Sequence record: PZ445430.1
Strand: one strand, 5' to 3'
From: a phage
Length of the DNA: 64,000 nt
In this document: positions 1,870 through 61,536 of the stretch, piece after piece
Numbering within the stretch: the first letter of the stretch is position 1
Layout of the letters: each line of letters starts with the position of its first letter
Made by a program: the position numbers and the translations under genes
The notes under the pieces: generated by a model
Seen by the model: the letters and a program-made list of their open reading frames with translations, nothing else
What the model was told of the DNA's origin: nothing
Database searches by the model: none

Positions 1870-3086
1870 TGGGTTTAAAAAGCTGGATTACTGAAAAGCT
1901 AAATCCGGGTCAACGTATTATAAGAGACATGGAACCAGTTAGTCATCGTACTAACCGTAAGCCATTTACCACTGGACAAGCCTACAGTAAGATTGAGATT
2001 CTCAACCGAACTGCTAACATGGTTATTGATAGTGCGGCTGAGTGTTCTTATACTGTCGGAGATAAATATAATATTGTCACGTACGCTAACGGCGTCAAAG
2101 CAAAGACTCTAGACACTCTCTTAAATGTACGACCCAATCCATTCATGGATATAAGCACATTCCGTAGACTTGTAGTCACTGACCTACTTTTTGAGGGTTG
2201 TGCATACATCTATTGGGATGGCACAGCGCTTTATCATGTCCCTGCTGCACTAATGCAAGTAGAGGCAGATGCCAATAAGTTTATCAAAAAATTCATATTT
2301 AATAACCAGATAGACTATCGCGTAGATGAGATTATCTTTATAAAGGATAACAGTTACGTGTGTGGCACAAACTCCCAAATTTCTGGACAATCTCGTGTTG
2401 CTACTGTTATTGACTCCCTTGAGAAGCGTTCTAAAATGCTTAACTTTAAAGAAAAGTTCCTAGATAACGGCACAGTGATTGGTCTTATTCTTGAGACGGA
2501 TGAAATCCTGAACAAGAAATTGCGCGAGCGTAAACAAGAAGAATTACAACTCGATTATAATCCTAGTACGGGTCAGTCTACTGTCCTGATTCTAGATGGT
2601 GGTATGAAAGCAAAACCGTACTCCCAAATATCCTCTTTTAAAGATCTAGACTTCAAGGAAGATATCGAAGGATTTAATAAATCCATCTGTCTTGCCTTTG
2701 GTGTTCCGCAAGTGCTACTTGATGGGGGTAATAACGCTAACATTCGACCAAACATCGAATTGTTCTATTACATGACTATCATTCCTATGCTGAACAAGCT
2801 GACTAGTTCTCTTACTTTCTTCTTTGGCTACAAGGTTACTCCTAACACTAAGGAAGTAGCTGCACTGACGCCAGATAAAGAAGCTGAGGCTAAACATTTA
2901 ACCTCTTTGGTTAATAACGGTATCATGACTGGTAACGAAGCTCGTGAAGAGCTTAACCTTGAACCTTTAGATGATGAGCAGATGAATAAGATTCGTATTC
3001 CTGCTAACGTTGCTGGTTCTGCAACAGGTGTATCTGGTCAAGAAGGTGGTAGACCGCAAGGCACTGCCGATGGGGATAAAGAATGA
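1869..3086 (+). CDS. portal protein (T5 pb7-like)
   Basis: 405-aa ORF, size and position match T5 portal; start overlaps upstream stop (TAATG). Confidence 0.85.
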   Translation: MGLKSWITEKLNPGQRIIRDMEPVSHRTNRKPFTTGQAYSKIEILNRTANMVIDSAAECSYTVGDKYNIVTYANGVKAKTLDTLLNVRPNPFMDISTFRRLVVTDLLFEGCAYIYWDGTALYHVPAALMQVEADANKFIKKFIFNNQIDYRVDEIIFIKDNSYVCGTNSQISGQSRVATVIDSLEKRSKMLNFKEKFLDNGTVIGLILETDEILNKKLRERKQEELQLDYNPSTGQSTVLILDGGMKAKPYSQISSFKDLDFKEDIEGFNKSICLAFGVPQVLLDGGNNANIRPNIELFYYMTIIPMLNKLTSSLTFFFGYKVTPNTKEVAALTPDKEAEAKHLTSLVNNGIMTGNEAREELNLEPLDDEQMNKIRIPANVAGSATGVSGQEGGRPQGTADGDKE

Positions 3087-3565
3087 TTGATTATGATGGT
3101 CTAAAGGCCATTTTTGGTGAAAAGCTGCCAGAATCTCATATCTTCTTTGCTACGGTTGCAGCACACAAGTTCGTTCCAAACTACGCTACTCTACGTAAAG
3201 AGTTTGGAATGACCACTGCACATACCAACCGCAAGGTTTGGAATAAGTTCAAAGAAGCATACGAAGTTACTGCTCCGGTTGTTCCGGCTCTAGCTTTCAC
3301 GAAGAATCTGGCTAAAACTCTAGCTGTTGATACTGGTGCAGCAATTAATCTGGGCGTAACAGTTACTGGTGGTACTGCACCATATACTTATGCTTGGACT
3401 AAAGACGGTTCTCCACTTAGTGGTGTTACTGGCCCTAATTTCAACAAAGCTACAGCTGTTGCAGAAGATGCTGGTACTTACAAAGTTGTTGTAACGGATA
3501 GTAAATCTACTTCCATTACTTCTAATGAGTGTGTAACAACTATCAACCCTGCGCCGGAGGCTTAA
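3083..3565 (+). CDS. capsid decoration protein with C-terminal Ig-like domain (T5 pb10-like)
   Basis: 160 aa; C-terminal Ig-like segment (TGGTAPYTYAWTKDGSPL...GTYKVVVTD); ATGA overlap with portal stop. Confidence 0.75.
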   Translation: MIDYDGLKAIFGEKLPESHIFFATVAAHKFVPNYATLRKEFGMTTAHTNRKVWNKFKEAYEVTAPVVPALAFTKNLAKTLAVDTGAAINLGVTVTGGTAPYTYAWTKDGSPLSGVTGPNFNKATAVAEDAGTYKVVVTDSKSTSITSNECVTTINPAPEA

Positions 3566-4218: not shown

Positions 4219-5595
4219 ATGACTATTGATATTAATAAGCTGAAGGAAGAACTTGGTCTGGGTGATCTGGCTAAATCTCTGGAAGGTCTGACTGCTGCTC
4301 AGAAAGCTGCGGAAGCTAAGCGTCTGCGTGAAGAGCAGGAAGAAAAAGAACTGGCTCGTATGAACGACCTAGTATCTAAAGCTGTTGGTGAAGACCGTAA
4401 GCGTCTGGAAGAAGCTCTGGATCTGGTTAAGAACCTGGATGAGAAGTCTAAGAAGAGCGCAGAACTGTTTGCACAGACTGTAGAAAAGCAACAGGAAACC
4501 ATCGTTGGTCTTCAGGACGAAATCAAGTCTCTGTTGGCAGCTCGTGAAGGTCGTTCCTTCGTTGGTGATAGCGTAGCTAAAGCTCTTTATGGCACTCAGG
4601 ATGCTTTCGAAGATGAAGTTGAGAAACTGGTTCTTCTGTCTTATATGATGGAGAAAGACGTATTCGAAACTGAACATGGTAAGGCTCACATTAAAGCTGT
4701 TAACGGTTCTTCTTCCGTTTCCATGTCTAGCGAAGCATACGAAACTATCTTCTCTACCCGTATTATTCGTGACCTGCAGAAGGAACTGGTAGTTGGTGCA
4801 CTGTTCGATGAACTGCCAATGTCCAGCAAAATCCTTACTATGCTCGTTGAACCAGAAGCTGGTCGCGCTACTTGGGTAGATGCTTCCAAATTCGGTACTG
4901 ACGAAACTGTTGGTGACGAAGTTAAAGGTCAACTGACTGAAATCAGCTTCAAAACTTACAAGCTGGCTGCTAAATCCTTCATCACTGATGAAACTGAAGA
5001 AGATGCAATCTTCTCCCTGCTGCCTCTGCTGCGTAAGCGTCTGATCGAAGCACACGCTGTTTCTATCGAAGAAGCTTTCATGTCTGGTAATGGTACTGGT
5101 CAGCCTAAGGGTCTGCTGAAACTGGCTGCTGATGATGGTGCTAAGGTTGTTACCGAAGCTAAAGCTGACGGTTCTGTTCTGGTAACTGCTAAGACTATCT
5201 CCAAGCTGCGTCGTAAACTGGGCCGTCATGGTCTGAAACTGAGCAAACTGGTACTGATCGTATCTATGGATGCTTACTACGATCTGCTGGAAGATGAAGA
5301 ATGGCAGGATGTTGCCCAGGTTGGTAACGATGCTGTTAAACTGCAAGGTCAGGTTGGTCGTATTTACGGTCTGCCGGTTGTAGTTTCTGAGTATTTCCCA
5401 GCTAAAGCTGCTTCTGCAGAATTCGCAGTTATTGTTTATAAAGATAACTTCGTAATGCCGCGTCAGCGTGCTGTTACTGTTGAACGTGAGCGCCAAGCTG
5501 GCAAACAGCGTGACGCATACTACGTTACTCAGCGTGTTAACCTGCAACGTTACTTCGAGAACGGCGTTGTATCTGGTGCTTACGCTGCCGCTTAA
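4219..5595 (+). CDS. major capsid protein precursor with N-terminal coiled-coil scaffolding domain (T5 pb8-like)
   Basis: 458 aa, same length as T5 pb8; charged coiled-coil N-terminal region; biased codon usage; intrinsic terminator follows. Confidence 0.9.
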   Translation: MTIDINKLKEELGLGDLAKSLEGLTAAQKAAEAKRLREEQEEKELARMNDLVSKAVGEDRKRLEEALDLVKNLDEKSKKSAELFAQTVEKQQETIVGLQDEIKSLLAAREGRSFVGDSVAKALYGTQDAFEDEVEKLVLLSYMMEKDVFETEHGKAHIKAVNGSSSVSMSSEAYETIFSTRIIRDLQKELVVGALFDELPMSSKILTMLVEPEAGRATWVDASKFGTDETVGDEVKGQLTEISFKTYKLAAKSFITDETEEDAIFSLLPLLRKRLIEAHAVSIEEAFMSGNGTGQPKGLLKLAADDGAKVVTEAKADGSVLVTAKTISKLRRKLGRHGLKLSKLVLIVSMDAYYDLLEDEEWQDVAQVGNDAVKLQGQVGRIYGLPVVVSEYFPAKAASAEFAVIVYKDNFVMPRQRAVTVERERQAGKQRDAYYVTQRVNLQRYFENGVVSGAYAAA

Positions 5596-13600: not shown

Positions 13601-14385
13601 CTCAAGGGTCTCTGGATACTACCTCTCTAGTAGCGGCTGGTATGCAAACTGTATCTTCAATGATTCAGTATAGTGTTGGTCAACAGGTAAGTGCTATTGA
13701 TGCAGCTATTGCAGCAGAACAGAAACGTGATGGTAAATCTGAGCAATCCAAAGCTAAGATCAAGAAGTTAGAGGCTGAAAAGCTCAAGATCCAGCAAGAT
13801 GCAGCTAAGAAGCAAATCATTATCCAGACGGCAGTAGCGGTGATGCAAGCAGCAACAGCTGTTCCATATCCATTCTCTATTCCTCTGATGGTTGCAGCTG
13901 GTTTAGCAGGTGCTATGGCTCTTGCTCAAGCATCCTCTGCATCTGGTATGTCTTCTATTGGGGACTCGGGTGCTGAGACGGCTGGTTACTTAACTCTTGG
14001 AGAGCGCCAGAAGAACGTAGACGTTTCTATGTCGGCTAACGCAGGTGAACTTTCTTATATTCGAGGAGATCAAGGGATTGGTAATGCGAACTCTTTCGTA
14101 CCTCGTGCAGAAGGTGGTAATATGTATCCTGGAGTTAGTTACCAGATGGGTGAGCACGGTACCGAAGTAATCACTCCTATGGTTCCAATGAAGGCTACTC
14201 CTACTGATGAACTCAAAGGATCTTCAAAAAGTACATCGGGTAGACCTATTGTGCTGAACATTAGTACGATGGATGCGGCTAGCTTCCGAGATTTTGCTTC
14301 GAGCAATAGTGCTGCTTTCAGGGATGCCGTGGAACAGGCTCTTAATGAGAATGGAACCACCCTGAAATCACTTGGTAATTCTTAA
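10675..14385 (+). CDS. tape measure protein (T5 pb2-like)
   Basis: 1236-aa ORF, long coiled-coil regions, C-terminal hydrophobic segments; size and position match pb2. Confidence 0.9.
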   Translation: MTDKLIRELLIDVKQKGATRTAKSIENVSDALENAAAASELTNEQLGKMPKTLYSIERAADRAAKSLTKMQASRGMMGITKSMDSIGAKLDDLAIAMIEVSDKLESGFTHVGKSVKAMGNDVAAATEKVQDRLYDTNRALGNTARGFNDTTTAAGRASRAIGNTSGSARGATRDFAAMAKVGGSLPLMYAAIASNVFVLQSAFEQLKMGDQLNRLEKFGTIVGTQTGTPVQTLARSLQEAAGYAISFEEAMRQASSASAYGFDAEQLNKFGLVARRAAAVLGVDMTDALNRVIKGVSKQEIELLDELGVTIRLNDAYADYVKQLNAANTGITYNVNSLSTFQKQQAYANAVIAESTKRFGYLDDVLRATPWEQFAANADAALRKVQQAAAKYLGPVIDSINAVFYTSQASISASAARAQEETNRQIDPTNVGAVALSLSASEEGYNKALDMYKESLEKRNKLKADLDKRMQQADASTAGAIRLVAQGAPVGLAAGGFEVGGVRIGSSEENQKFIADTAALALQVERLDKEVEDSTGNLNAWKSAYQAAGAAAAKANPEFQKQINLQKDANDPDAVYDFNSATLKGLTEQQKAYDQAKKTASDLANDIQNIAQNTNTAAKTSASLSDTIKTIESLSAGTGKNADEYVKSLNLGYNTLSEMKTASQALAGYVKLTGNETKNQLEVQQKIAEVYNQTKDKEKAQEAGRRLEIQQLEEQEAALKRVLETNKGNKAIEGEIAKIQLERIKITNQGMEAQKKVKDYTDKILGVDREIALLNNRTMTDTQYRLAQLNLELTIEKEKYEWYTKQADKQKEAEQSRRSQAQIEREIWKFRQDQQAEMTSKRQEAFENTLTSMFPLAGEMQKMEMQLDFYTQMKELTKGNANEQMRWNAEIAKTRAQMSALTAQRNAQMQQQVGSSVGATYTPTTGLSGADKDFADMQNRMSSYDQAISKLSELNSEATAVAQSMGNLTNSMIQFSQGSLDTTSLVAAGMQTVSSMIQYSVGQQVSAIDAAIAAEQKRDGKSEQSKAKIKKLEAEKLKIQQDAAKKQIIIQTAVAVMQAATAVPYPFSIPLMVAAGLAGAMALAQASSASGMSSIGDSGAETAGYLTLGERQKNVDVSMSANAGELSYIRGDQGIGNANSFVPRAEGGNMYPGVSYQMGEHGTEVITPMVPMKATPTDELKGSSKSTSGRPIVLNISTMDAASFRDFASSNSAAFRDAVEQALNENGTTLKSLGNS

Positions 14386-14392
14386 TACTGGA

Positions 14393-14420
14393 GGAGGACT
14401 TTATGTCCTCCTTTTCTTTA
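14393..14420 (+). terminator. intrinsic terminator after tape measure gene
   Basis: GGAGGAC-TTTA-TGTCCTCC hairpin followed by T-rich run. Confidence 0.75.
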
Positions 14421-14434
14421 TGGAAAAATAAAAA

Positions 14435-14470
14435 TTTCTTGATAAAATTTTCCAACCCTATTATAATATT
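14435..14470 (+). promoter_or_regulatory. sigma70-like promoter upstream of pb9-like gene
   Basis: TTGATA, 17-nt spacer, TATAAT. Confidence 0.45.
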
Positions 14471-14493
14471 GTTATTAAGAGGAGAAATTAACT

Positions 14494-15108
14494 ATGAGAC
14501 TACCAGACCCATACACGAACCCAGAGCTATCAGGGTTAGGTTTTGAAAGCGTTAACTTAGTAGACAATGACCCTATGATTCGTGATGAATTACCTAATGG
14601 TAAAGTTAGGGAGGTTAAGGTGTCTGCTCAATATTGGGGTATTAATATCTCTTATCCAGAATTATTCCCAGATGAATTTGCTAAATTAGATTCATTCATT
14701 CTAGATTACAAAAGAACAGGTAGCTATATTGATGTGTTATTACCGCAATATGAAGCTTTCCGAGTTCGTGGTGATACTAGTGCTGTAAATATTCCTGCTG
14801 GACAAAAAGGTTCAACAGTTATTATGGACACTAAAGGTACACTTCGTGGACTGCCTAAACCAGGCGATTTATTTAAATTGTCCAACCACCCAAAAGTGTA
14901 CAAAATCACTTCTATCAACACAGTAGGAAATACTTGGAATATAAGTGTTTACCCTGATCTATTCATTACTACTACGGGTAGTGAGAAACCGGTATTTAAT
15001 GGTATTCTATTTAGAACTAAATTAATGAACGGAGACAGCTTCGGCTCTACGTTAAATAGTAATGGTACATATACTGGTATTTCACTTTCCTTGAGGGAAA
15101 GTCTATGA
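14494..15108 (+). CDS. distal tail protein (T5 pb9-like)
   Basis: 204 aa; N-terminus MRLPDPYTNPE...; promoter-like TTGATA-17-TATAAT and GAGGAG RBS upstream. Confidence 0.85.
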   Translation: MRLPDPYTNPELSGLGFESVNLVDNDPMIRDELPNGKVREVKVSAQYWGINISYPELFPDEFAKLDSFILDYKRTGSYIDVLLPQYEAFRVRGDTSAVNIPAGQKGSTVIMDTKGTLRGLPKPGDLFKLSNHPKVYKITSINTVGNTWNISVYPDLFITTTGSEKPVFNGILFRTKLMNGDSFGSTLNSNGTYTGISLSLRESL

Positions 15109-34288: not shown

Positions 34289-35179
34289 TTATACCAAATC
34301 TTTGAGCGATTCGGCAACTAAAATTTCAATACGTTGAGCCAACATATCGATCTCTTCTTTATTTAAATCACCTGGGTCTTTACCTTCTGGAAGAAGGAAG
34401 TTACCAATTACAGGTGTTAAACGTGTTTTTGTACGAATTAGCTTCGCCAATGCTTGCGCAGCTTTATTACCAGAGGCATCATTATCTAATAGGATAACTA
34501 CTACTCTTACTCCAGCAATAATGTAAGGACTGAACTTATCGGCAATGTTATCAGATGTAAACTGATGTGTACCAAAGCAGCAAGAAGCATAATCCACACC
34601 GTTATCTTCTAGATTTAACATATCAAAGATACCTTCAACTAGAATAAGAACTGGTGTATTATATCGTACAGGGAAAATCGGTGGTGAAACTTGTTTTGGT
34701 TTTACTAAGTATTTAGGAGGGGCAGAACTGTTTATAGAACGTCCCAAGAATAGGATATTGCGTCCAACAGCATCTGTTATTGGGAATACAATTCTGCCTT
34801 CCCAGTCTGCTTGATGTTGGAAAGCAAAATATTTCTTCAAGGTCTTAGAACTGATACCTCGGAAATCACCTTCGAAAAGGTAAGCAGATTCAGGAATTGC
34901 AAGATTCGTAGATCCATTCCTAATCTCTGAAATCTTTTTACGTACTTGTGACAATCTTGGTGACTGTCTGTACTGAGTCTCATTAAAATAATGGTAAATG
35001 CTCGGTATTCCTCTACCAAAGCCACAGCTCAAGCAATGCATAATACCTGATTCAGGGTCAATACGCAAGCTTGGGTGTTTATCATCATGATCTGGATTGA
35101 GACAACAGATGAGGATATCCCCACCTGTGTCTTTGTATTCAATGCCTTTCAGATCAAGTAGTTCTGTTATTCTACTCAT
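34289..35179 (-). CDS. DnaG-like DNA primase (zinc finger plus TOPRIM)
   Basis: CxxC...CxxC zinc-binding motif near N-terminus, TOPRIM-like acidic motifs (LVEG, LLDNDASG). Confidence 0.75.
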   Translation of the reverse strand: MSRITELLDLKGIEYKDTGGDILICCLNPDHDDKHPSLRIDPESGIMHCLSCGFGRGIPSIYHYFNETQYRQSPRLSQVRKKISEIRNGSTNLAIPESAYLFEGDFRGISSKTLKKYFAFQHQADWEGRIVFPITDAVGRNILFLGRSINSSAPPKYLVKPKQVSPPIFPVRYNTPVLILVEGIFDMLNLEDNGVDYASCCFGTHQFTSDNIADKFSPYIIAGVRVVVILLDNDASGNKAAQALAKLIRTKTRLTPVIGNFLLPEGKDPGDLNKEEIDMLAQRIEILVAESLKDLV

Positions 35180-47469: not shown

Positions 47470-47632
47470 ATTCTCCCTCCTTAATAAGGAACTCTTTCCA
47501 TTCTGCTGTATCCTCATAGATAACGCAGAAATCATCACTCTTCCATGAGAAGTCATCAGTAGCAAATTCGAAACGGTAGCACCAACTACCATCTGGCCAT
47601 ACTAAAAGATCACACATGCTTTTCTGGGACAT
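47450..47632 (-). CDS. small acidic protein
   Basis: 60-aa ORF (MSQKSMCDLLVWPDGSW...) preceded by GGAGGG; start overlaps 3' end of Sir2-like gene. Confidence 0.4.
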   Translation of the reverse strand: MSQKSMCDLLVWPDGSWCYRFEFATDDFSWKSDDFCVIYEDTAEWKEFLIKEGEYGEEDF

Positions 47633-48461
47633 AAATATTTCCCTCCATAAAAGCTTCAACTTGATCAATAAAGTGTTTATTACCAAAAACTTCGGCAGCT
47701 CCAGCACGCCATACAGTAACACCACGTTTCTCATACTCAAGCTGTTCGTCATAACGAACTTGTGGGTTAACAACCATCATCTTAGTTCCACGACATACAG
47801 CAGGAAATAATTCCCAGTTGAAGTTGATAACTTGGTTACTACAACCCACCACAATAACCATGTCATTGCTAGTAAGAGTATCAAACAGGTTGATTTGACC
47901 CATGTACCACGGAGCTGTCTCACCAAAGAACACCACGTTTGGTTTTACCCATTCGTAATCTTCAGGGGCAATCGCAGTATACCCAACATCTTCGATGATT
48001 TGATTGCGACCCTGATGATAGATCACCTCTTTCAAGTACCCGTGAGCGTGAATGATTTCATCACGAGGGATACCAGCACGTTCCAGAAGGTCATCAACGT
48101 TAGTAGTGAAGTTCTTCACGCTACCCGCATCATAACGCTGGAACCATTCTGCAATTCGCAGATGGGCAATGTTAGGCTCAACAGTCTGTAGTTCCTGACG
48201 ACGCATGTTGTAGAACTCATGAGTCTTGAGATACAGATCGTTACCATCTTCATCAATGCCAGGGAAACGAGCGCTGAAGTAGTTAGGATCATCTTCACCA
48301 CAGAAGCGACGGAAGCCAGCTTCAAAGTTAGGCAAGCTACATACTTCCTCTAGATCGTACTCATCCCACAAAGATTTTCCACTAGCAGTATCAGTACGGA
48401 AAGCACGAACACCACTATCTACACTCAAACCTGCACCACTAACAACAATTAGTCTACGCAT
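47610..48461 (-). CDS. Sir2-like NAD-dependent protein (sirtuin fold, no obvious Zn ribbon)
   Basis: 283 aa; GAGLSVDSGVRAFR, TTNVDDL, HAHG, VVGCSNQV match sirtuin motifs; no CxxC pairs seen. Confidence 0.7.
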   Translation of the reverse strand: MRRLIVVSGAGLSVDSGVRAFRTDTASGKSLWDEYDLEEVCSLPNFEAGFRRFCGEDDPNYFSARFPGIDEDGNDLYLKTHEFYNMRRQELQTVEPNIAHLRIAEWFQRYDAGSVKNFTTNVDDLLERAGIPRDEIIHAHGYLKEVIYHQGRNQIIEDVGYTAIAPEDYEWVKPNVVFFGETAPWYMGQINLFDTLTSNDMVIVVGCSNQVINFNWELFPAVCRGTKMMVVNPQVRYDEQLEYEKRGVTVWRAGAAEVFGNKHFIDQVEAFMEGNIYVPEKHV

Positions 48462-48655
48462 TATACGATTCCTTGCTTGAATCCTTCGATGATATTTTGG
48501 AGCAGAATTGCTTCTTCTGGGCGAACCTTCTCTTGCTTAATAAGCATATCCAAACCAGCAATACAGGTAGCTACTCCAGCATTATACCCAGCATTCCACT
48601 GCTCCATAAGCATATTTTCTAAATTACTTTTTAGATTCTGATTCAAGAAGTCCAT
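48461..48655 (-). CDS. hypothetical small protein
   Basis: short ORF (likely start MDFLNQ) downstream-coupled to Sir2-like gene. Confidence 0.35.
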   Translation of the reverse strand: MDFLNQNLKSNLENMLMEQWNAGYNAGVATCIAGLDMLIKQEKVRPEEAILLQNIIEGFKQGIV

Positions 48656-48827
48656 AAAGTTTTTCCTCCAATTCCATAATACGATTTTCGTAAGAAGCAC
48701 GCAGCTTCTCGATGGACAAAGCACGAACTGTAACTTCATCTGAATTGATCGCTAGCTGAGCTAGATCTTCTGTTTCCATACGTCCGTTGTAAATTAAGCG
48801 ATATTTAAGATGTTTTACGTTTTTCAT
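48624..48827 (-). CDS. hypothetical small protein
   Basis: 67-aa charged helical ORF. Confidence 0.35.
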   Translation of the reverse strand: MKNVKHLKYRLIYNGRMETEDLAQLAINSDEVTVRALSIEKLRASYENRIMELEEKLYGLLESESKK

Positions 48828-48836
48828 TCTTGTTCC

Positions 48837-49118
48837 TTAGTTCTGTACTGTAAATTCATTCTTATCACAGTGAGCATAATAATACCCATACATACGATAA
48901 ATTTTCACAGCCTTAGTAGACCCCTTCGATTCTTCATAATCAATCCAGAGCCACTTGTCTTTACCTACATAATGTACCCGAAACTTCTTAACTTTCTTAT
49001 CATTCCATGTTGCAACAACACGACGATAATCAAATCCACCCAACCAATCTAGAGCCTTACGTTCTTCACTAGGCTCTCCAAGATAGGAAACATCTACTTT
49101 CGGAAGCAATTCGCTCAT
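48837..49118 (-). CDS. hypothetical protein
   Basis: 93-aa ORF with T5-type promoter and GAGGAG RBS upstream. Confidence 0.5.
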   Translation of the reverse strand: MSELLPKVDVSYLGEPSEERKALDWLGGFDYRRVVATWNDKKVKKFRVHYVGKDKWLWIDYEESKGSTKAVKIYRMYGYYYAHCDKNEFTVQN

Positions 49119-49141
49119 AGCTTTCTCCTCTCAAATTTATA

Positions 49142-49180
49142 AATCAATTATACATAAGTTTTAGCTCGAAAGCAAATAAA
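49142..49180 (-). promoter_or_regulatory. T5-type early promoter
   Basis: on - strand TTGCTT, 17-nt spacer, TATAAT. Confidence 0.6.
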
Positions 49181-49211
49181 ATAAAAGCCAGGTCGACTAG
49201 CAACCTGGCTG
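49175..49211 (-). terminator. intrinsic terminator after nrdD
   Basis: AGCCAGGT...ACCTGGCT hairpin followed by TTTTATTTTA on - strand. Confidence 0.7.
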
Positions 49212-49216
49212 ATTCA

Positions 49217-51091
49217 TTATTTAGCGCGAATGTCCTGATGTTTCACTCGACCCATAACCTCATGTTGTTTACCTGGGTTAAATGGACGAGCACCTGGATT
49301 TCCGAGATATCCACAAACTCGACGAGTTACCTCAAGAGTCTCAGGATCATGGTTGCCACAAATTGGGCATTTGAAACCATCCTCAGAAGCTATAGTTTCA
49401 CCCAAGAACCCACATTCCCCACAAGAGTCTACTGGAGTATTAATACCAAAGTAATGAACTTTACTTGCGGCATAGTTAATAACCCATTCCAGTGCATCTG
49501 GGAATCGTTTCATATCCGGCAATTCCACATAGGAAATGCATCCACCAGAAGCAATTGGAGTAAAGTTAGACTCATAATCGAACTTCACGTTTGGAGCAAC
49601 CTTACGTTCTACATCAAGGTGATGGGAATTAGTGTAATATCCTTTAGCCAGAATATCTTCATGCTCTGGAAAATACTCACGGTCTAGGCGACAGAAGCGA
49701 TCACATAGAGATTCAGATGGTGTAGCATATAGACTATACCCTAATTGAGTCTCTTCCTTCTTCTGATCAGCACGATCACGCATGTATTGTAGCACACGTT
49801 GAACGAACTTGACACAAGACTCAGACATTGTATCTACATCTTTACCAAACATGAACTGCAACATTTCGTGGCAGCCTATATATCCTAGAGATACAGAAGC
49901 ACGCTTGTAGAAATGATCAAACACATACTCATCTGGCCCCAGACGTAATCCAAAGGCTCCTGACATATAGAGGATGGGCGCAGCTTTAGCTTGGATGTAT
50001 TTTAAGCGATCAACCCTCCACTCCAATGCTTTTAACGCGGTATCCACACGCAGCTCAAGTAGATCGAAGAATAGATCAATATTTCCTTCCGCTTCGATAG
50101 CGATTCGAGGAAGGTTTACGGAAACAACGCCTAAGTTGTTACGACCAGAAGTTTCACCATCTTCCGCAGCAGCCAGGAATGAACGACAGCCCATAGAGAC
50201 TTTGTAGTCTCCCGTAACTTCTACAACCTTATCATAACTGATGTAGTCAGGATACATACGTTCAGCAGTACATTTCATAGCTAACTTCTTGATATCATAG
50301 TTAACATCACCAGGTTTCATGTTTACGCCATCACGCAAAACAAATACCAGTTTAGGGAAGATAGCTGTACGTTTATTGATACCCAAACCATCCATACGCA
50401 CTTCTAGGATTGCTTTCTGTACAAGACGTGCTTCCCAAGAAGTTCCTAGACCAAACCCAAAGGTAATAAACGGACTTTGACCATTAGAGTTGAACATCGT
50501 ATTGATTTCATACTCCAGGCCCTGACAGGCATCGTAAACTTCTTTCTCAGTCATTTCCGTAGCCATTACAGATGCTTTAGCTTCATCCTTAGTCCAACGC
50601 TTTGCAAACGCATGATTCTTATCATAAGACTTACGAACATAAGGAGCCAATACTTCATCTAATCGGTCTACAGAAGTACCCCCATATTGATGTGAACTAA
50701 CCTGAGTGATAATCTGAGCTGTGATAGCAGCCGCAGTAGTAATAGAGTTTGGTGTACTGATTTCAGCATTACCAACCTTCATACCATTCTTCAACATATC
50801 TTCCAAAGCAACCAGGCAACAGTTAGTCATACCTAACGCAGCGTAATCAGCATCATGGAAGTGAATATCACCAATCATGTGAGCATTTCGAATCTGGATT
50901 GGCATTTCTTCCAGAATCAGATATTTACTCAATTCCCCTGCAAGCATATCCCTTTGTGTAGGGAAACGTTCTGAGGGCTTATTGGCATTATTAAACAGCA
51001 GCTCTTCATCTGCTGAACCTTCGATAATTTCTTTGCAGTTTCGAATCAAGGACTGCATTCCTTTATACTTTAGTTCTTCATTGTGATTCAT
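49217..51091 (-). CDS. nrdD: anaerobic ribonucleoside-triphosphate reductase (class III)
   Basis: 624 aa; C-terminal glycyl-radical motif RVCGYLG and Zn-ribbon cysteines (CGECGF...CPICG). Confidence 0.85.
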   Translation of the reverse strand: MNHNEELKYKGMQSLIRNCKEIIEGSADEELLFNNANKPSERFPTQRDMLAGELSKYLILEEMPIQIRNAHMIGDIHFHDADYAALGMTNCCLVALEDMLKNGMKVGNAEISTPNSITTAAAITAQIITQVSSHQYGGTSVDRLDEVLAPYVRKSYDKNHAFAKRWTKDEAKASVMATEMTEKEVYDACQGLEYEINTMFNSNGQSPFITFGFGLGTSWEARLVQKAILEVRMDGLGINKRTAIFPKLVFVLRDGVNMKPGDVNYDIKKLAMKCTAERMYPDYISYDKVVEVTGDYKVSMGCRSFLAAAEDGETSGRNNLGVVSVNLPRIAIEAEGNIDLFFDLLELRVDTALKALEWRVDRLKYIQAKAAPILYMSGAFGLRLGPDEYVFDHFYKRASVSLGYIGCHEMLQFMFGKDVDTMSESCVKFVQRVLQYMRDRADQKKEETQLGYSLYATPSESLCDRFCRLDREYFPEHEDILAKGYYTNSHHLDVERKVAPNVKFDYESNFTPIASGGCISYVELPDMKRFPDALEWVINYAASKVHYFGINTPVDSCGECGFLGETIASEDGFKCPICGNHDPETLEVTRRVCGYLGNPGARPFNPGKQHEVMGRVKHQDIRAK

Positions 51092-51184
51092 TATACCCTC
51101 CTTCTCTAACTAAGACTACTATTATAACTCATTCGAAGGCGGATGTCAACAATATTTTACTATAAAGTTCTGTAACATGATCTG

Positions 51185-51235
51185 AGTCAAAAAATTTTAT
51201 TTGCCAACCTCTACTAAAAATAGTATAATCACGCA
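51185..51235 (+). promoter_or_regulatory. T5-type early promoter (distal, upstream of phoH-like)
   Basis: A-rich UP region, TTGCCA, 17-nt spacer, TATAAT. Confidence 0.5.
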
Positions 51236-51324
51236 CCCGTGCACGCGATATAAAATGATTATCTAGTACCATACATCTCCCAATAAAAGCAAGCAAATTT
51301 TTTATTTAAATGCAATATCATAGG

Positions 51325-51385
51325 CTTATTTAAAATTGTAGTTGCTTTCTCCCGTATATATTGGTATAATATATTTGTAAGTTGA
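51325..51385 (+). promoter_or_regulatory. T5-type early promoter (proximal, upstream of phoH-like)
   Basis: AAAATT UP, TTGCTT, 17-nt spacer, TATAAT. Confidence 0.6.
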
Positions 51386-51443
51386 TAAACAAGATCTTTT
51401 TGTTGATCCTCTGTTAGCGAAGTACACTATAGGAGTGTTATTT

Positions 51444-52196
51444 ATGGGAAAAGCACGTCAAAAAAGAGAGAACCGCAATGGTTCAAGAAAGCGTGGCAAC
51501 AAGTACGAGAGTAACGTAATTCAAGCAGATTTCTCTGGTGATTACGCCAATCCAGTTGCTAAACCCCTAGTTGGTAAAAACCGTGAGCAAAAATCATATA
51601 TCAATATGATCAAGAACAACACAGTGACTGTGGGTATTGGTGAACCAGGTACTGGTAAAACCTTTATTCCATCCGTTCTTGCAGCTCAGGAACTCGTAGA
51701 CATTCACTCAGATATTGAGCAAGTGATCCTCGTGCGTCCGAACGAACCTCTAGGTAAATCTCTTGGTATGCTCCCAGGTGATCTGGCAGAAAAGCTAGAG
51801 CCTTGGTTGGAACCAATAGCCGATGGCATGAAATGGGCAATCGGTGATCACGCCTACAAAGGATATGTCGAACGTCAGAAAATTAAATTCCTGGCTATCG
51901 AACATGCCCGTGGCCGAACTTTCAACAACTCCTATGTAATTGTCGATGAAGCTCAGAATATCTCCGTTGAAGCAATGATCTGTCTCCTGACTCGTGTAGG
52001 ACAAGATTGTCGTTTAATTATCTGTGGGGATATAGCGCAGAAAGACATCAAGGGTGATTCAGGTCTAGCACTTCTTATGGAAGTCTATGAGAAGTATGAA
52101 AACTCTCCTTTCTCTATGATCGAACTGATCGACAACGTTCGCTCACCAGAGTCTAAAGCATTCTACGATATCTTTAAGGATATGGGGAAGGTGTAA
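51444..52196 (+). CDS. phoH: PhoH-like ATPase
   Basis: Walker A GEPGTGKT, Walker B VIVDEAQN; start at ATG 51444 after AGGAG. Confidence 0.85.
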   Translation: MGKARQKRENRNGSRKRGNKYESNVIQADFSGDYANPVAKPLVGKNREQKSYINMIKNNTVTVGIGEPGTGKTFIPSVLAAQELVDIHSDIEQVILVRPNEPLGKSLGMLPGDLAEKLEPWLEPIADGMKWAIGDHAYKGYVERQKIKFLAIEHARGRTFNNSYVIVDEAQNISVEAMICLLTRVGQDCRLIICGDIAQKDIKGDSGLALLMEVYEKYENSPFSMIELIDNVRSPESKAFYDIFKDMGKV

Positions 52197-52197
52197 T

Positions 52198-52440
52198 ATG
52201 GGAAACGTCGTACATCTGCACCGCAAAACTAAGATCCACCGTACTTCATTGAGTGCTGCTAATATGATTACACGTAAGGAAGGGGAAGAAAGTCCTAAGA
52301 CTACCCTAGCGTGGAAAATTGTAGCCTCTAATCCAAATCGGCCATTCAACTATAATGAACTGAGTACTTCTATAGACATTCTTATGGCTAAGGAAATACG
52401 ACAGAAACTAACTGATATGACCGATAAACTTAAATGGTAA
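52198..52440 (+). CDS. hypothetical protein
   Basis: 80-aa ORF coupled to phoH-like stop; terminator follows. Confidence 0.5.
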   Translation: MGNVVHLHRKTKIHRTSLSAANMITRKEGEESPKTTLAWKIVASNPNRPFNYNELSTSIDILMAKEIRQKLTDMTDKLKW

Positions 52441-52446
52441 GACAGA

Positions 52447-52481
52447 CGAGCCTGGGTATGAAAATATCCGGGCTCTTTTTA
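52447..52481 (+). terminator. intrinsic terminator
   Basis: GAGCCTGGG...CCCGGGCTC hairpin followed by TTTTT. Confidence 0.7.
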
Positions 52482-52530
52482 TCTGTAAAATTGTACTTGC
52501 AAAATGACCCAAAACAAAGTAGAATATCTT
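52480..52530 (+). promoter_or_regulatory. promoter upstream of nrdA
   Basis: TTGCAA, 17-nt spacer, TAGAAT. Confidence 0.5.
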
Positions 52531-52563
52531 CTAAATCCTGATAACTACAAAAAGGAAAGCCAA

Positions 52564-54894
52564 ATGAGCCATCGTATCGAAAAAGTAATTAAACGTGACG
52601 GTACTGTTCAGGACTTTGCTCCTGAAAAACTCAATGATTGGGCTGCATGGGCATGTAAAGATACTGACGTAAGTTGGTCTGCCGTAGTTATGGCTGCCCT
52701 GAAAAATCTACCCAAAGGTGTTGTAGACTCCGATACACTCCAAGATGTGTTAATTAAAGCCGCTGAAGGTCTTATCAAAGACAACCCAGCATATGATACT
52801 GTAGCAAAGGAATTACGTCTTGCGCAGATGCGTAAACGCCTATATGATTCCTTTGAACCTCCTTCTCTGCGTTTCTTCCACGATCATATGGTTCGTATTG
52901 GCGCCTGGGAAGACATGAGTGCATGGATTAGCGATGATCATTTTGATGCTCTGAATCAAGTTATTGATCATGATCGCGATCGTTTATTCACCAGTGGTGG
53001 ACTGAAACAGTTCTTCGACAAGTATTCCCGTCGTAATATTGCAACTGGTGAAATTTATGAAACCCCGCAGTTTGCCTACATGGGTATGGCAATGGCGATG
53101 TTATCTCAACCTAACTGGACAATCCTAGATGCAATCGACCTCTACAATGCAATGTCGCTCCACAAAATCAACGTTCCTACGCCGCCACTGGTTGGCCTGC
53201 GCTCTAGTGACCGTGGATTTGCTAGTTGCTGTCTCGTGGATTCCACTGACACGCTGGATTCAATCGACACAGCCGAGCACATCGTCTTCAAAATGGTCGC
53301 AGCCAGAGCGGGAATCGGGTATCATCTTGAAAGCCGATCAATTGCTGATCCGGTGCGAAATGGGGCATTCCCGCATTCCGGAAAACTGCCATATTATCGA
53401 CACATTGACCGATCAGTAAAAGCTAACACTCAGCAAACCCGTGGTGGTTCTGCTACTGTGTCTTACCCATACTTCGATCCTGAAATCATTCAATTGATGC
53501 AAGTTAAGCAGCAACGTGCTACAGACGAGAATAAAATCGATAAGATGGATTACTCTCTGAGCTTTAACAACCTCCTGCTAAAACGTTACCTGAAAAACGA
53601 AGATATTACGCTAATGTCCTACTTCTACGCACCAGAAGTTCATGAAGCGTTTTATGGCGAAGATGAGGCTAAGTTTGAAGAAATCTACGTGGCAGCGGAG
53701 AAACGTGTGGCATCTCTTACAAAGATCGACCACGAAGGAAAAACAATTCCAGCAGCTCCTAGAATCTCTGCAAAAGAAATCCTAGATACTTGGTTACGTA
53801 TCCGTATGGAAACAGGGCGTATGTATGCTCATCACATTGGTGAATCTAACCGTCATGGTAACTTCCTTGACCCGATTCGTATGACCAACCTTTGTGTTGA
53901 AATTACTCAGCCAACCCGTCCATTCCATCACATTACGGAGCTGTATAAGACCCAAGATCAGTTAGACGATATGCGTCCAGAAGATATTGGTGAAGTATCT
54001 CTGTGTAACTTAGGTGGTGTTGTACTAGGTCGTATGGAATCTCTGGCTGAATGGGAGAAAACTTGCTACATTCTTCTGAAATTCGTTGATACAATCATCG
54101 AGATTCAGGATTACCCATTCCCAACTATGGAGTACACGGCTAAGAAACGTCGTAACGTTGGTATTGGTCTGATGAACGCAGCAGGTGCAATGGCAGCAGA
54201 AGGTTTGGCTTACGAAGGTGTTGAAGCCCGTAACTGGATTCACCGTGAAGCTGAAAAGCTGTCCTACTTCCTACATAAAGCCTCTGTACGTCTGGCTAAA
54301 GAACAAGGTGCATGTGACTGGTTTAATCGTACTAAACCATCCAAAGGAACTCTGGTAATCGACACGTACAAGAAAACTGTTGATGAACTGGTAACTGTAG
54401 GTCTAGAAATGGATTGGGAATCTCTGCGTGCAGATATTCTGAAATATGGTATGCGCAACTCTGTTCTGACTGCTCAGATGCCGGGTGAAAGTTCCTCTGT
54501 ACTGCTAGGTGTTACTAACTCTATCGAGCCGCCTCGTAAGATTGTATCTATCAAGGGTAGTGCAGTTAATAAAGTAATTGCAATTGCTCCAGGTGCAACC
54601 GATTGGGATACATTAATGAGTTATAAACTAGCTTATGATGTAGATCGTATCGAGTGGATAAAATGGGTAGCAACCATGCAGAAATTCTTCAGTCAGTCTA
54701 TCAGTACGAATATGTACTATGACTACACCAAGTTTGAGAATGAAATCATTCCTGGTCCAGTAGTAGTTCGTGATTTCATGACTGCTGTTAAGTACGGCTG
54801 GAAAACTTGGTACTACGCTAACTTCAACACTGAAAATGGTGGTGGAGCTGGTGAAGAAGCAGCAGGTTGTGCATCAGGTGGTTGTAACCTGTAA
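52564..54894 (+). CDS. nrdA: ribonucleoside-diphosphate reductase large subunit (class Ia)
   Basis: ATP-cone N-terminus (MSHRIEKVIKRDGT), RNR catalytic motifs, C-terminal CxxGGC tail; start at internal ATG because track ATG 52504 lies inside the promoter. Confidence 0.9.
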   Translation: MSHRIEKVIKRDGTVQDFAPEKLNDWAAWACKDTDVSWSAVVMAALKNLPKGVVDSDTLQDVLIKAAEGLIKDNPAYDTVAKELRLAQMRKRLYDSFEPPSLRFFHDHMVRIGAWEDMSAWISDDHFDALNQVIDHDRDRLFTSGGLKQFFDKYSRRNIATGEIYETPQFAYMGMAMAMLSQPNWTILDAIDLYNAMSLHKINVPTPPLVGLRSSDRGFASCCLVDSTDTLDSIDTAEHIVFKMVAARAGIGYHLESRSIADPVRNGAFPHSGKLPYYRHIDRSVKANTQQTRGGSATVSYPYFDPEIIQLMQVKQQRATDENKIDKMDYSLSFNNLLLKRYLKNEDITLMSYFYAPEVHEAFYGEDEAKFEEIYVAAEKRVASLTKIDHEGKTIPAAPRISAKEILDTWLRIRMETGRMYAHHIGESNRHGNFLDPIRMTNLCVEITQPTRPFHHITELYKTQDQLDDMRPEDIGEVSLCNLGGVVLGRMESLAEWEKTCYILLKFVDTIIEIQDYPFPTMEYTAKKRRNVGIGLMNAAGAMAAEGLAYEGVEARNWIHREAEKLSYFLHKASVRLAKEQGACDWFNRTKPSKGTLVIDTYKKTVDELVTVGLEMDWESLRADILKYGMRNSVLTAQMPGESSSVLLGVTNSIEPPRKIVSIKGSAVNKVIAIAPGATDWDTLMSYKLAYDVDRIEWIKWVATMQKFFSQSISTNMYYDYTKFENEIIPGPVVVRDFMTAVKYGWKTWYYANFNTENGGGAGEEAAGCASGGCNL

Positions 54895-57540: not shown

Positions 57541-57894
57541 ATGTTAATTATACTATTATTTGTCATATTCTTTCTAAAACATTTTATGGCCGATTATACA
57601 CTCCAAACTCCATATATGCTAAGAAAGACGAATAAAATAGGGTGGAAACTTCCATTATTAACCCATTCGCTAGTACATGCTGGATTAACATTTGCAATTC
57701 TAATCCTATTCACATCACCAGGAATGTCTATAGCTTTAGCTATTATGGAATTAATTCTACACTTTATTATAGATTATTGGAAAGCACAACGCTGTAAATA
57801 CGCTATAAGCGATGCTAAGTTTTGGATAGCTTTAGGATTTGATCAGTTACTGCATTATCTGACATACGCCCTAATAATCTTGATTATAATCTAA
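57541..57894 (+). CDS. small integral membrane protein
   Basis: 117 aa, about three hydrophobic helices. Confidence 0.55.
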   Translation: MLIILLFVIFFLKHFMADYTLQTPYMLRKTNKIGWKLPLLTHSLVHAGLTFAILILFTSPGMSIALAIMELILHFIIDYWKAQRCKYAISDAKFWIALGFDQLLHYLTYALIILIII

Positions 57895-57899
57895 TTCAA

Positions 57900-57925
57900 A
57901 TAGCCCTTCGGGGCTATTATATTTA
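57900..57925 (+). terminator. intrinsic terminator
   Basis: TAGCCC-TTCG-GGGCTA hairpin followed by T-rich run. Confidence 0.65.
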
Positions 57926-57970
57926 AATTTCATTTGCTTACTGAGTGAAATTCAAATATAATATACTTCT
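57920..57970 (+). promoter_or_regulatory. T5-type early promoter
   Basis: TTGCTT, 17-nt spacer, TATAAT. Confidence 0.6.
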
Positions 57971-57992
57971 AGTTTGACAGAAGGATTTAATA

Positions 57993-58571
57993 ATGACAGC
58001 CATAGTAGCATTTAAATATAAAGATAAAGTATACTTAGCTGGTGATCGTATGGGTTCTAATGGCTATACGAAACTGCTGGTTAAAAATCCGAAAGTATTC
58101 AAAATCTCTGATGATTTGTACTTCGGATACACTAGTTCCTTCTACATGGGACAATTACTAGAGCATAGCTTTACTGTACCACCACGTTTAGCAGATATTT
58201 CCGATGATAAATATTTATATACGGAAATAGTACCTAAATTACGTGATATGTTTAACCAGAAAGATTTTGGCGAAAAGAAAAATGAAAAATATGCTGAACC
58301 TAATCTGGGACAATTTATTATGCTCTACAAAGGAAGAATCTTTATTTTCCAATCTAATGCTTCTATTCTAGAAGTTGAATATGCCGGTGTAGGCTGTGGA
58401 GGAGAAGATGTACTTTCCAGTATTCGTACAGGTTTAGCTATTGCGGATTGTCGAGCCACAGATTTAGATGTAGATGATATATTTGAAATCATTGATCTGG
58501 CTTTTACGCATTGTGCAGATTATATGTGTGGTGTATCTTCTCAACATGATGTATTAGTAATTGGAGAATAA
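57993..58571 (+). CDS. HslV/proteasome-like Ntn-hydrolase (putative peptidase)
   Basis: 192 aa; Thr at position 2 (MTAIVAFKYKDKVYLAGD) and later YAGVGCGGEDVLSSIRTGLAIAD resemble HslV. Confidence 0.45.
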   Translation: MTAIVAFKYKDKVYLAGDRMGSNGYTKLLVKNPKVFKISDDLYFGYTSSFYMGQLLEHSFTVPPRLADISDDKYLYTEIVPKLRDMFNQKDFGEKKNEKYAEPNLGQFIMLYKGRIFIFQSNASILEVEYAGVGCGGEDVLSSIRTGLAIADCRATDLDVDDIFEIIDLAFTHCADYMCGVSSQHDVLVIGE

Positions 58572-58573
58572 AT

Positions 58574-58843
58574 ATGTCTATTCTTTTATCTGCTTTAGAA
58601 GCAAAACAAAATACTATTGCTAGCATTAAAAAGGAAGTAATTGACCTAGAATCACTTATTGCCATAGAGATTGACAAAGCTATCAAAGATAAAGAATTTA
58701 ACTGTCACATCCAGGGATTAACTGAATACTCAGAAAACGCTAGAAATAGCGTCATGCAAAAACTTAGCAAACTAGGTTATGTTGTAGAAGCTAAGTATGA
58801 ACAGCGTGAAGGTTTTTGGCTTGAAATTGATTGGAGCAAATAA
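58574..58843 (+). CDS. hypothetical protein
   Basis: 89-aa ORF between HslV-like gene and rnh. Confidence 0.5.
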   Translation: MSILLSALEAKQNTIASIKKEVIDLESLIAIEIDKAIKDKEFNCHIQGLTEYSENARNSVMQKLSKLGYVVEAKYEQREGFWLEIDWSK

Positions 58844-59757: not shown

Positions 59758-60273
59758 ATGGCTAAGCAGAAAAACGCAAAAACTCAGGCAGCTCCGGCAG
59801 TTAAAACTTTCGCTCAGACCGAAGCCAATCGTAAGGCTCGTCTGGAACGTCATCTGCGTAAGCATCCTACTGATGCTCAGGCTCAGACTGCCCTGAAGTC
59901 TGCGGCTCCGGTTCGCCAGAAGCCGAAGGCCAAGAACTCTACTCGCGCAACTGCTAAGCAGGTTGTGTTCATCAAGGGTGAAGGTCATAAGTCTGTACCG
60001 GTAACTCTGAGCTTTAACGGCGGTGCTGAGATGTTCGCCCGCAACGGTATGGCTCTGAAAGACTACGAAAAAGCAGTCAATCAGAAGCGTAAGCCAATGG
60101 CTGACGTAATGCGTGAATCCCGTGGACAGTTTGGCTCCGTTAAACCGAATATTTTCGGTGTAGAGTATAGCCGTGACAACGTTCGCGCTCTGTGCTACGG
60201 TATCGGTATTAAGTTTACTGGTGCTTCTGATCGTAAATCCGCTAAACCTACTCGTAAGCGTAAAGCGAAGTAA
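59758..60273 (+). CDS. basic Lys/Arg/Ala-rich protein, possible DNA-binding protein
   Basis: 171 aa; strong RBS; codon usage biased toward preferred E. coli codons; hairpin follows. Confidence 0.6.
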   Translation: MAKQKNAKTQAAPAVKTFAQTEANRKARLERHLRKHPTDAQAQTALKSAAPVRQKPKAKNSTRATAKQVVFIKGEGHKSVPVTLSFNGGAEMFARNGMALKDYEKAVNQKRKPMADVMRESRGQFGSVKPNIFGVEYSRDNVRALCYGIGIKFTGASDRKSAKPTRKRKAK

Positions 60274-60834: not shown

Positions 60835-61536
60835 ATGAAATTCAAGCCCTTTGGTATGCTGGACATTGAATCTCTAGGTACTCCAGGAAATTGCGGTACT
60901 ACTCATATTGCAATGCCTTCTTTCGCTTTTGTAGCGATGCACGGAATTGATAAAGATCCTGATCTGGTATTCGTTACTCTAGACGTTCAAGATCAGCTTA
61001 ATGCGGGTGCTAAGGTAACTGCCTCTACTATTGCATTCTGGATGGATCAAGCTAAAAACAGTCCATCTGCGCTCCATATTATGGAGGCTCTAAATGGTCG
61101 TAATCCTAAGCTGATTGCCTTCCGTGATGGTAAGCATCACTGCACTAATGACGTAGGCTCTAATTATGCTGCCTTCTCTATGGCTCAGAACATTATGGAA
61201 TTGTCTCTAGGAGATAATGCTCTGTATTACGGCAATGGCCCAGAGTTTGATATGACAATCTACTCTGCAAATACGTTCCATGCCGGAACCCATGAAGAAA
61301 TAGTTCCGTGGAAATTCTGGAACTTAGGTAACGTTCGATCTTTCCGTAATCAGTGGATGCAAGCTGGTTATAGCTATAAAGATCTAGAAGCCGAAGGTGC
61401 TAGCTGGGCAAAAGCTAAAATGGAAAAGATGGACACCATTCGTTATGGAATCTATCCTGTGAAGCATGATCCAGCATTCGATGCTTTAGTTGAAAGTTAT
61501 TGTGTAGCCGTCATGATCGAAAAAATCAAAATTTGA
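60835..61536 (+). CDS. DEDDh-type 3'-5' exonuclease (putative)
   Basis: 233 aa; Exo I-like MLDIESLGT, Exo II-like GPEFDMTIY, Exo III-like HDPAFDALVESY. Confidence 0.55.
   Translation: MKFKPFGMLDIESLGTPGNCGTTHIAMPSFAFVAMHGIDKDPDLVFVTLDVQDQLNAGAKVTASTIAFWMDQAKNSPSALHIMEALNGRNPKLIAFRDGKHHCTNDVGSNYAAFSMAQNIMELSLGDNALYYGNGPEFDMTIYSANTFHAGTHEEIVPWKFWNLGNVRSFRNQWMQAGYSYKDLEAEGASWAKAKMEKMDTIRYGIYPVKHDPAFDALVESYCVAVMIEKIKI

Follow-up and report, generated by a model that had tools for sequence, protein, structure and literature searches.

A lone proteasome-like Ntn hydrolase gene of Escherichia phage SuperGirl and its relatives

Results

Gene content of the locus

The DNA analysed here (the window) is a stretch of 64,000 nucleotides from Escherichia phage SuperGirl (Bas29), a T5-like phage of the genus Epseptimavirus in the Demerecviridae, and each window coordinate equals the SuperGirl record coordinate minus 480. 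The gene under study (Table 1) bears the locus tag bas29_0065 in that record, where its product is labelled 'hypothetical protein'. Its 192-aa open reading frame starts with MTAIVAFKYKDKVYLAGD, which agrees with the Met-Thr start described in the initial annotation of this DNA. The protein is identical to the EPS7 protein ACB97546.1, labelled 'peptidase HslV family', and an identical protein is found on 55 contigs in public protein databases, under the UniRef name 'ATP-dependent protease'; other names used for similar proteins in related phage records are 'proteasome subunit-like protein' and 'threonine-type endopeptidase'. Because an identical protein had carried the HslV family label beforehand, nothing is added to the existing annotation by recognising the gene as such: both the gene and its family have been annotated and described before, and the finding itself is correct but already known.

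The gene lies in an early region concerned with nucleotide metabolism, in the order nrdA, nrdB, frd, thyA, the gene of a DUF3307 membrane protein, the protease gene, an 89-aa ORF and rnhA. Further downstream on the same strand, positions 59758-60273 (+) encode a 171-aa basic protein that is conserved in T5 (T5.089) and matches Pfam DUF7022 over its full length (E=1.5e-79). The gene at 60835-61536 (+) is called a 'putative metallopeptidase' in both SuperGirl and T5, and its product matches the Pfam family of Rv2179c-like 3'-5' exoribonucleases above the cut-off (E=1.3e-7), so that the metallopeptidase label is probably wrong.

Table 1. Features of the bas29_0065 locus, in window coordinates
Feature	Position	Strand	Basis or remark
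Upstream neighbour, 117-aa DUF3307 membrane protein	57541..57894	+	Pfam E=6.8e-13; between thyA and the hairpin/promoter element
Stem-loop AATAGCCC-TTCG-GGGCTATT, terminator-like, with a T-poor tail	57899..57918	+	-12.2 kcal/mol, z=-4.3; just after the upstream gene
Sigma-70-like promoter candidate, TTGCTT-17 nt-TATAAT	57934..57962	+	Read from sequence, conserved; 30 nt 5' of the ATG
Shine-Dalgarno-like AAGGA	57981..57985	+	7 nt 5' of the protease-gene ATG
CDS, 192 aa plus stop, proteasome-like (peptidase T1 superfamily) Ntn hydrolase	57993..58571	+	ORF, Pfam, PHROG, structure model
Codon ACA, Thr2 (Thr1 after Met loss), predicted catalytic nucleophile	57996..57998	+	Invariant in 144 relatives
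Codon GAT, Asp18 (mature Asp17), predicted member of the catalytic triad	58044..58046	+	Invariant in 144 relatives
Codon AAA, Lys34 (mature Lys33), predicted member of the catalytic triad, motif PKVF	58092..58094	+	Invariant in 144 relatives
Signature G-Y-T-S-S-F-Y-M-G-Q-L-L, residues 45-56; oxyanion-hole Gly and start of H1	58125..58160	+	Alignment
Predicted pore loop from H2 to the next strand, residues 89-105, QKDFGEKKNEKYAEPNL	58257..58307	+	Model; analogy with BPH and HslV (PMC5777263, PMC8665760)
G134-C135-G136, counterpart of the proteasome/HslV GSG (Ser129) motif, Cys for Ser	58392..58400	+	Alignment
89-aa ORF, starting 3 nt after the protease stop and followed by rnhA	58574..58843	+	No family match

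An accessory gene behind a conserved promoter-like element

The 5 kb surrounding the gene are matched by 445 phage records, and a protein at least 90% identical to bas29_0065 is encoded in only 126 of them. In the T5-type phage DT571/2, rnhA follows directly after thyA and the protease gene is absent, while Stitch, an Epseptimavirus, has an unrelated 84-aa ORF instead. The protease gene is accessory, missing from T5-type phages and from some Epseptimaviruses.

A three-way DNA alignment of SuperGirl, Stitch and DT571/2 shows that the hairpin and the TTGCTT-17-TATAAT element are nearly identical in all three, while the flanking genes differ: the element precedes rnhA in the T5-type phage and the protease gene in SuperGirl. 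A generic promoter and terminator scan called neither signal, the promoter candidate falling under the -35 criterion. The DUF3307 gene occurs in neither Stitch nor DT571/2 and represents an insertion separate from that of the protease gene, so that SuperGirl carries one insertion 5' of the conserved element and another immediately 3' of it. The hairpin and the promoter-like sequence look like a conserved terminator/promoter unit marking a place between thyA and rnhA where cargo genes are inserted. The protease gene is probably co-transcribed with rnhA, with the conserved element as the putative promoter.

Family assignment and predicted fold

The Pfam Proteasome model (PF00227) matches residues 2-189 of bas29_0065 with E=1.2e-9 and a score of 38.5 bits (cut-off 22.4), and PHROG 1040, 'peptidase HslV family', matches with E=1.9e-21. 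An AlphaFold2 model of the monomer, based on 18 homologues, reached a mean pLDDT of 89.7 and a pTM of 0.87. The initial annotation had proposed structure prediction as a check, and the model is an Ntn alpha-beta-beta-alpha sandwich, not a fold of another kind. Helices H1 (residues 50-59), H2 (71-89), H3 (137-153) and H4 (160-177) are all present and the strands follow each other in the expected order, with no insertions and no C-terminal S12/H5. When the model was compared with the PDB by Foldseek, only chains of the proteasome family were returned, with HslV, BPH and 20S beta subunits at probability 1.00. HslV of four organisms (TMq 0.63-0.66) and BPH (5ovu, TMq 0.70, 20% identity) headed the matches and 20S beta subunits came next; the best structural superposition was with BPH. 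The resemblance of bas29_0065 to the proteasome superfamily is far beyond chance.

Among 1.84 billion representative proteins, a search with the profile found 6704 clusters (at 50% identity) with E<=1e-3 and 836 with E<=1e-30, and nearly all of these matches start from the first residue of the target.

Conservation of the active site

We assessed conservation in an alignment of 144 relatives whose identity to bas29_0065 averages about 30%. The invariant columns are M1, T2, D18, K34, G45, G106 and G134, and the nearly invariant ones are I4, F36, T47, S49, F50, G53, Q54, L56, F108, G136 and V181. In the profile-profile alignment with HslV, T2, D18, K34 and G134-C135-G136 fall on Thr1, Asp17, Lys33 and the G-S-G motif, and G45 (numbered from Met) pairs with G45 of HslV, the oxyanion-hole Gly. 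Residues 45-56, the signature by whose pattern the bacterial and viral relatives were retrieved, pair with the HslV stretch GFAGGTADAFTLF with a deletion of four residues after the oxyanion Gly. The Thr that the initial annotation had placed at the nucleophile position of HslV recurs throughout the homologues, invariant in the 144-sequence alignment and part of an MT start in 160 of the 167 relatives fetched; the others carry a few additional residues ahead of it.

A departure from the HslV pattern is seen at residue 135, the equivalent of Ser129, which is Cys in 93 of the 144 relatives, Ser in 41 and another residue in 10; bas29_0065 itself has G-C-G in place of G-S-G. The position after the nucleophile Thr (position 3) is also variable, with Cys in 112/144 relatives and Ala in SuperGirl, and the two cysteines at positions 3 and 135 occur together in 66 sequences of the alignment. 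The predicted pore loop of bas29_0065 has 17 residues, against a family median of 14, and includes 4 K and 4 D/E for a net charge of about 0; the confidence of the model is lower in this loop.

Measured against two diverged Epseptimavirus copies, the dN/dS of the protease gene is 0.05 and 0.03, and the gene is under strong purifying selection.

Relation to HslV and HslU

The profile built from the 144 relatives aligned to E. coli HslV with a probability of 97.1%, E=5e-11 and 20% identity. The two share the Ntn fold, the residues Thr1, Asp17 and Lys33 at identical positions, a G-x-G motif and the lack of a propeptide. The phage protein differs from HslV (ClpQ) in the four-residue deletion, in the longer pore loop and in the Cys in place of the GSG serine; moreover, HslV has its partner hslU, whereas SuperGirl is without an hslU gene. 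Published descriptions of the loop that joins H2 to the following strand call it 'merely a short linker' in HslV and long in BPH, which has no known unfoldase (PMC5777263; PMC8665760). Searched with NCBIfam, bas29_0065 matched no HslV model at E<=1 and 20S beta models only below threshold, and a tblastn search of the phage with E. coli HslV found nothing. Given these results and the low identity, we ruled out that bas29_0065 is an orthologue of HslV. Of the initial description as a lone HslV/proteasome-like Ntn hydrolase, the Ntn fold, the position of the Thr and the solitary gene stand, while 'HslV-like' is only loosely true at such an identity.

The HslV residues reported to hold the C-terminal tail of HslU are F54, F57, Q114, A79 and K80 (PMC6429459). 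Their counterparts in bas29_0065 are F50, G53, E127, L83 and R84, in an alignment that is uncertain in the H2 region. Position 50 is Phe in 132/144 relatives and position 84 is Arg or Lys in 103/144. Both E. coli and Salmonella, the hosts, have hslVU. In Actinobacteria, no HslV is listed in Table 1 of the survey of proteasome homologues (PMC8665760), and since relatives of bas29_0065 are abundant in Streptomyces, which belongs to that phylum, the family as a whole cannot depend on HslU.

Placement among the lone proteasome homologues

A further 22 homologues of the proteasome were described by Fuchs, Alva and Lupas (2021); among them, the compact 'group I' families found in phages are PPH (about 140 aa, without H2), AAH and CPH; AAH is distributed over alpha-proteobacteria, Actinobacteria and many phages (PMC8665760). 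When bacterial genomes were scanned, one for each species, 391 relatives of bas29_0065 were found. The main sources of the best 80 are Streptomyces, Azospirillum, Mesorhizobium, Devosia, Polyangiaceae and Paraburkholderia; these proteins have a length of about 180 aa, and in every case Thr follows the initiator. Like AAH, bas29_0065 is compact (about 180-190 aa) and has H1-H4 with no S12/H5, insertions or propeptide, and no partner was found for it; its family, again like AAH, occurs in alpha-proteobacteria, in Streptomyces and in many phages. Within the lone, compact group I homologues (HslV/BPH/AAH type), it is a probable member of AAH (reference sequence of the authors: WP_035979212), placed there by architecture and distribution.

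With PPH the protein shares its occurrence in phages, its group I character and its lone gene, but it has 192 residues and a clear H2 (71-89), and on these two grounds membership of PPH was ruled out. Some phage matches cover only residues 1-136 of bas29_0065, at 38-40% identity. With BPH (PDB 5ovu, 5ovs) it shares the lone gene, the absence of an unfoldase and a longer pore loop than HslV has, and Thr1, which is exposed in BPH through removal of Met, would be exposed in the same way in bas29_0065 (PMC5777263). The long loop of BPH is strongly acidic, however, whereas that of bas29_0065 has a mixed charge, and the match between BPH and the bas29_0065 sequence profile is weak (E=0.0044). The signature GYTSSF[RY]MGQLL is specific to the phage/AAH-like group and separates bas29_0065 from BPH. 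We found no experimental study of the phage family of bas29_0065 in the literature.

Several relatives depart from the compact form. Seven close ones (P0031, P0036, P0041, P0047, P0061, P0074 and P0096) are 301-388 aa long with an acidic-rich C-terminal extension in which no Pfam domain was found, and these may be examples of what Fuchs et al. described as the 'RPC' type, which likewise has a C-terminal extension. In the metagenomic protein P0016 (123 aa), a SEC-C-type zinc motif (PF02810) is joined to the initial ~105 residues of the protease; the sequence is a truncated chimera or else an artefact of assembly. Some phages have two adjacent proteasome-like genes, as at 4454-4999 and 4971-5576 of locus L151, where the first copy keeps T1, D17 and K33 and is missing the GYTSSFRMGQ motif. 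In Aeromonas phage 2L372X (genes _210 and _211, locus L005), a second 'peptidase HslV family' gene directly follows the first and crosses the origin of the record. Mixed rings made from such paired genes are conceivable.

Search for a partner

The initial annotation had reported that no AAA+ unfoldase gene lies next to the protease gene, and this was borne out near the gene and elsewhere in the phage sequence searched. None is annotated in SuperGirl between 44 and 110.8 kb, or between 1 and 100 kb of phage OSY-STA, which served as a proxy because it is 99.7% identical to SuperGirl across the 5 kb around the protease gene. A tblastn search of the window and of the SuperGirl and OSY-STA loci with E. 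coli HslU returned only a 45-aa P-loop match within a NadR-like adenylyltransferase gene. The downstream 89-aa ORF was ruled out as a partner, since it has no family match and is kept in Stitch, where the protease gene is absent.

To survey neighbours more widely, we took 80 bacterial and 80 viral (IMG/VR) loci and grouped into clusters every ORF lying no more than 5-6 kb from the homologue. Shadow ORFs overlapping the homologue aside, no gene family was present in more than 11 loci, and no neighbour was conserved across the 160; the recurring neighbours, at variable distances, were the common phage genes HK97 prohead protease, portal, capsid, HNH endonuclease and PhoH. No PADLOC model matched bas29_0065, its two neighbours or two of the long relatives, and the gene was ruled out as a component of a defence system on this basis.

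A few individual neighbourhoods may be recorded. In SuperGirl, PhoH-like and Sir2-like genes lie a few kb from the protease gene, at about 47600-52200 of the window (48090-52676 of the record), and genes of the same two kinds are likewise found a few kb from the proteasome-like gene of the unrelated jumbo phage E9.1 (locus L007). PhoH is located within 3 kb of the proteasome-like gene in 8/80 viral loci, which is a weak link. Vibrio phage henriette 12B8 (locus L006) has a peptide deformylase gene (1633-2130) two genes 5' of its proteasome-like gene (3001-3531). Deformylation comes ahead of the removal of Met, which an Ntn enzyme needs; this neighbourhood is a single case and may be a coincidence.

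SuperGirl also carries an orphan ClpP-like gene, annotated as 'Clp-like protease', outside the window at record positions 84327-84926 (14327-14926 of locus L170). The copy in OSY-STA (34420-35019 of locus L004) matches the Pfam CLP_protease model with 30.8 bits (cut-off 20.2). The annotation lists no Clp ATPase, which makes the ClpP-like protein a second subunit of a chamber protease without a partner.

Discussion

Proposed function and alternatives

Taking the intact and invariant site, the purifying selection and the compact predicted fold with its ring-forming helices together, we consider that bas29_0065 is most likely a catalytically competent enzyme. The best explanation of the gene, and one that we regard as fairly probable, is that it encodes an early-expressed, self-assembling threonine peptidase that would need no dedicated unfoldase. 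The conserved promoter-like element would drive early transcription of the gene together with rnhA, and the host methionine aminopeptidase would remove Met1 and expose Thr1, as happens in HslV and in BPH, where the removal has been shown by mass spectrometry (PMC5777263). By analogy with the same two proteins, the subunits would form a stacked two-ring chamber with the active sites inside, and the enzyme would then cleave peptides or proteins, the latter either unfolded or specific ones, with no need of a dedicated ATPase; its substrates may include host proteins, defence or stress factors among them. We favour a lone, self-assembling peptidase because the family is lone everywhere and is abundant in Streptomyces, for which no HslV is listed, and the 17-residue pore loop, so unlike the short linker of the HslU-gated HslV, also counts in its favour. 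A precedent is provided by Rrp, a proteasome-like protease encoded on a phage-like mobile element of S. pneumoniae, which trims the ribosomal protein bL27 with no dedicated ATPase involved (bioRxiv 10.64898/2026.08.10.744006). Counted against the proposal are the Cys that replaces the Ser129 equivalent, the presence of HslU in the hosts and the two of the five tail-pocket positions that are kept or conservatively replaced (F54 to F50, K80 to R84). In addition, BPH, the best structural match and the closest relative that has been studied, binds epoxomicin yet is inactive on model substrates (PMC5777263).

Another possibility is that the phage rings dock on the host HslU (or on ClpX or another host unfoldase), giving a chimeric ATP-dependent protease with redirected degradation. 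The phage has no unfoldase that we could find, hslVU is present in its E. coli and Salmonella hosts, HslV is among the closest solved structures, and the counterparts of the tail-binding F54 and K80 (PMC6429459) are conserved in the family; the orphan ClpP-like gene of the same phage would fit as well, in that borrowing host ATPases could be a theme. Two of the other pocket positions speak against docking, with F57 paired with Gly and A79 with Leu in a protein of only 20% identity to HslV, and the alignment is of low confidence around H2. The long pore loop is unlike that of HslV (PMC5777263), and the family thrives in Streptomyces, in a phylum without a listed HslV (PMC8665760). We consider hijacking of a host unfoldase rather unlikely. 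A pure decoy or inhibitor, without catalysis, could have the same target, sequestering host HslU or poisoning HslV rings through co-assembly; the HslV-like fold of the phage protein would suit such a role, which needs no phage-encoded partner. However, a decoy needs no intact active site, and Thr1, Asp17, Lys33 and the oxyanion Gly are invariant in the 144 relatives, with dN/dS of 0.03-0.05; at the observed identity to HslV, co-assembly is itself unlikely. This makes a pure decoy highly improbable.

A different kind of activity would be that of a sequence-specific processing enzyme or a transpeptidase acting on one defined phage or host protein, like connectase or Rrp, perhaps with no closed chamber. 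Connectase, a monomeric ligase, belongs to the superfamily together with many lone homologues whose quaternary structure is unknown (PMC8665760), the trimming of bL27 by Rrp comes from a phage-like element (bioRxiv 10.64898/2026.08.10.744006), and the strongly conserved GYT[ST]SF[RY]MGQLL beside the active site could be a specificity element. On the other hand, the model has no connectase-type insertion over the active site and retains the four ring-forming helices, no candidate substrate gene is linked to the homologue in the 160 loci, and Rrp itself was reported to be rather unspecific. We judge a dedicated processing enzyme or ligase to be unlikely, below the docking of phage rings on a host unfoldase and well above a decoy.

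Implications

The two orphan chamber-protease subunits of Epseptimaviruses, one proteasome-like and one ClpP-like, might dock on host unfoldases (HslU, ClpX/ClpA) or act alone, and in this way remodel the proteome of the infected cell, for example by destroying defence or stress proteins. This is a speculative suggestion to which we attach a low probability, but if true, it would amount to a hitherto undescribed mechanism by which a phage counters defence with borrowed proteolysis.

Phages and prophages very commonly carry lone proteasome homologues, and thousands of sequence clusters match bas29_0065. SuperGirl, a member of the BASEL collection that infects E. coli K-12, together with natural sister phages without the gene (Stitch and the T5-type phages), makes a convenient system for the role of the protease in infection and for its need of HslU. 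The lasting interest lies in what these very common phage proteasome homologues do, including which proteins they degrade, and a phage of E. coli K-12 is a practical model for this.
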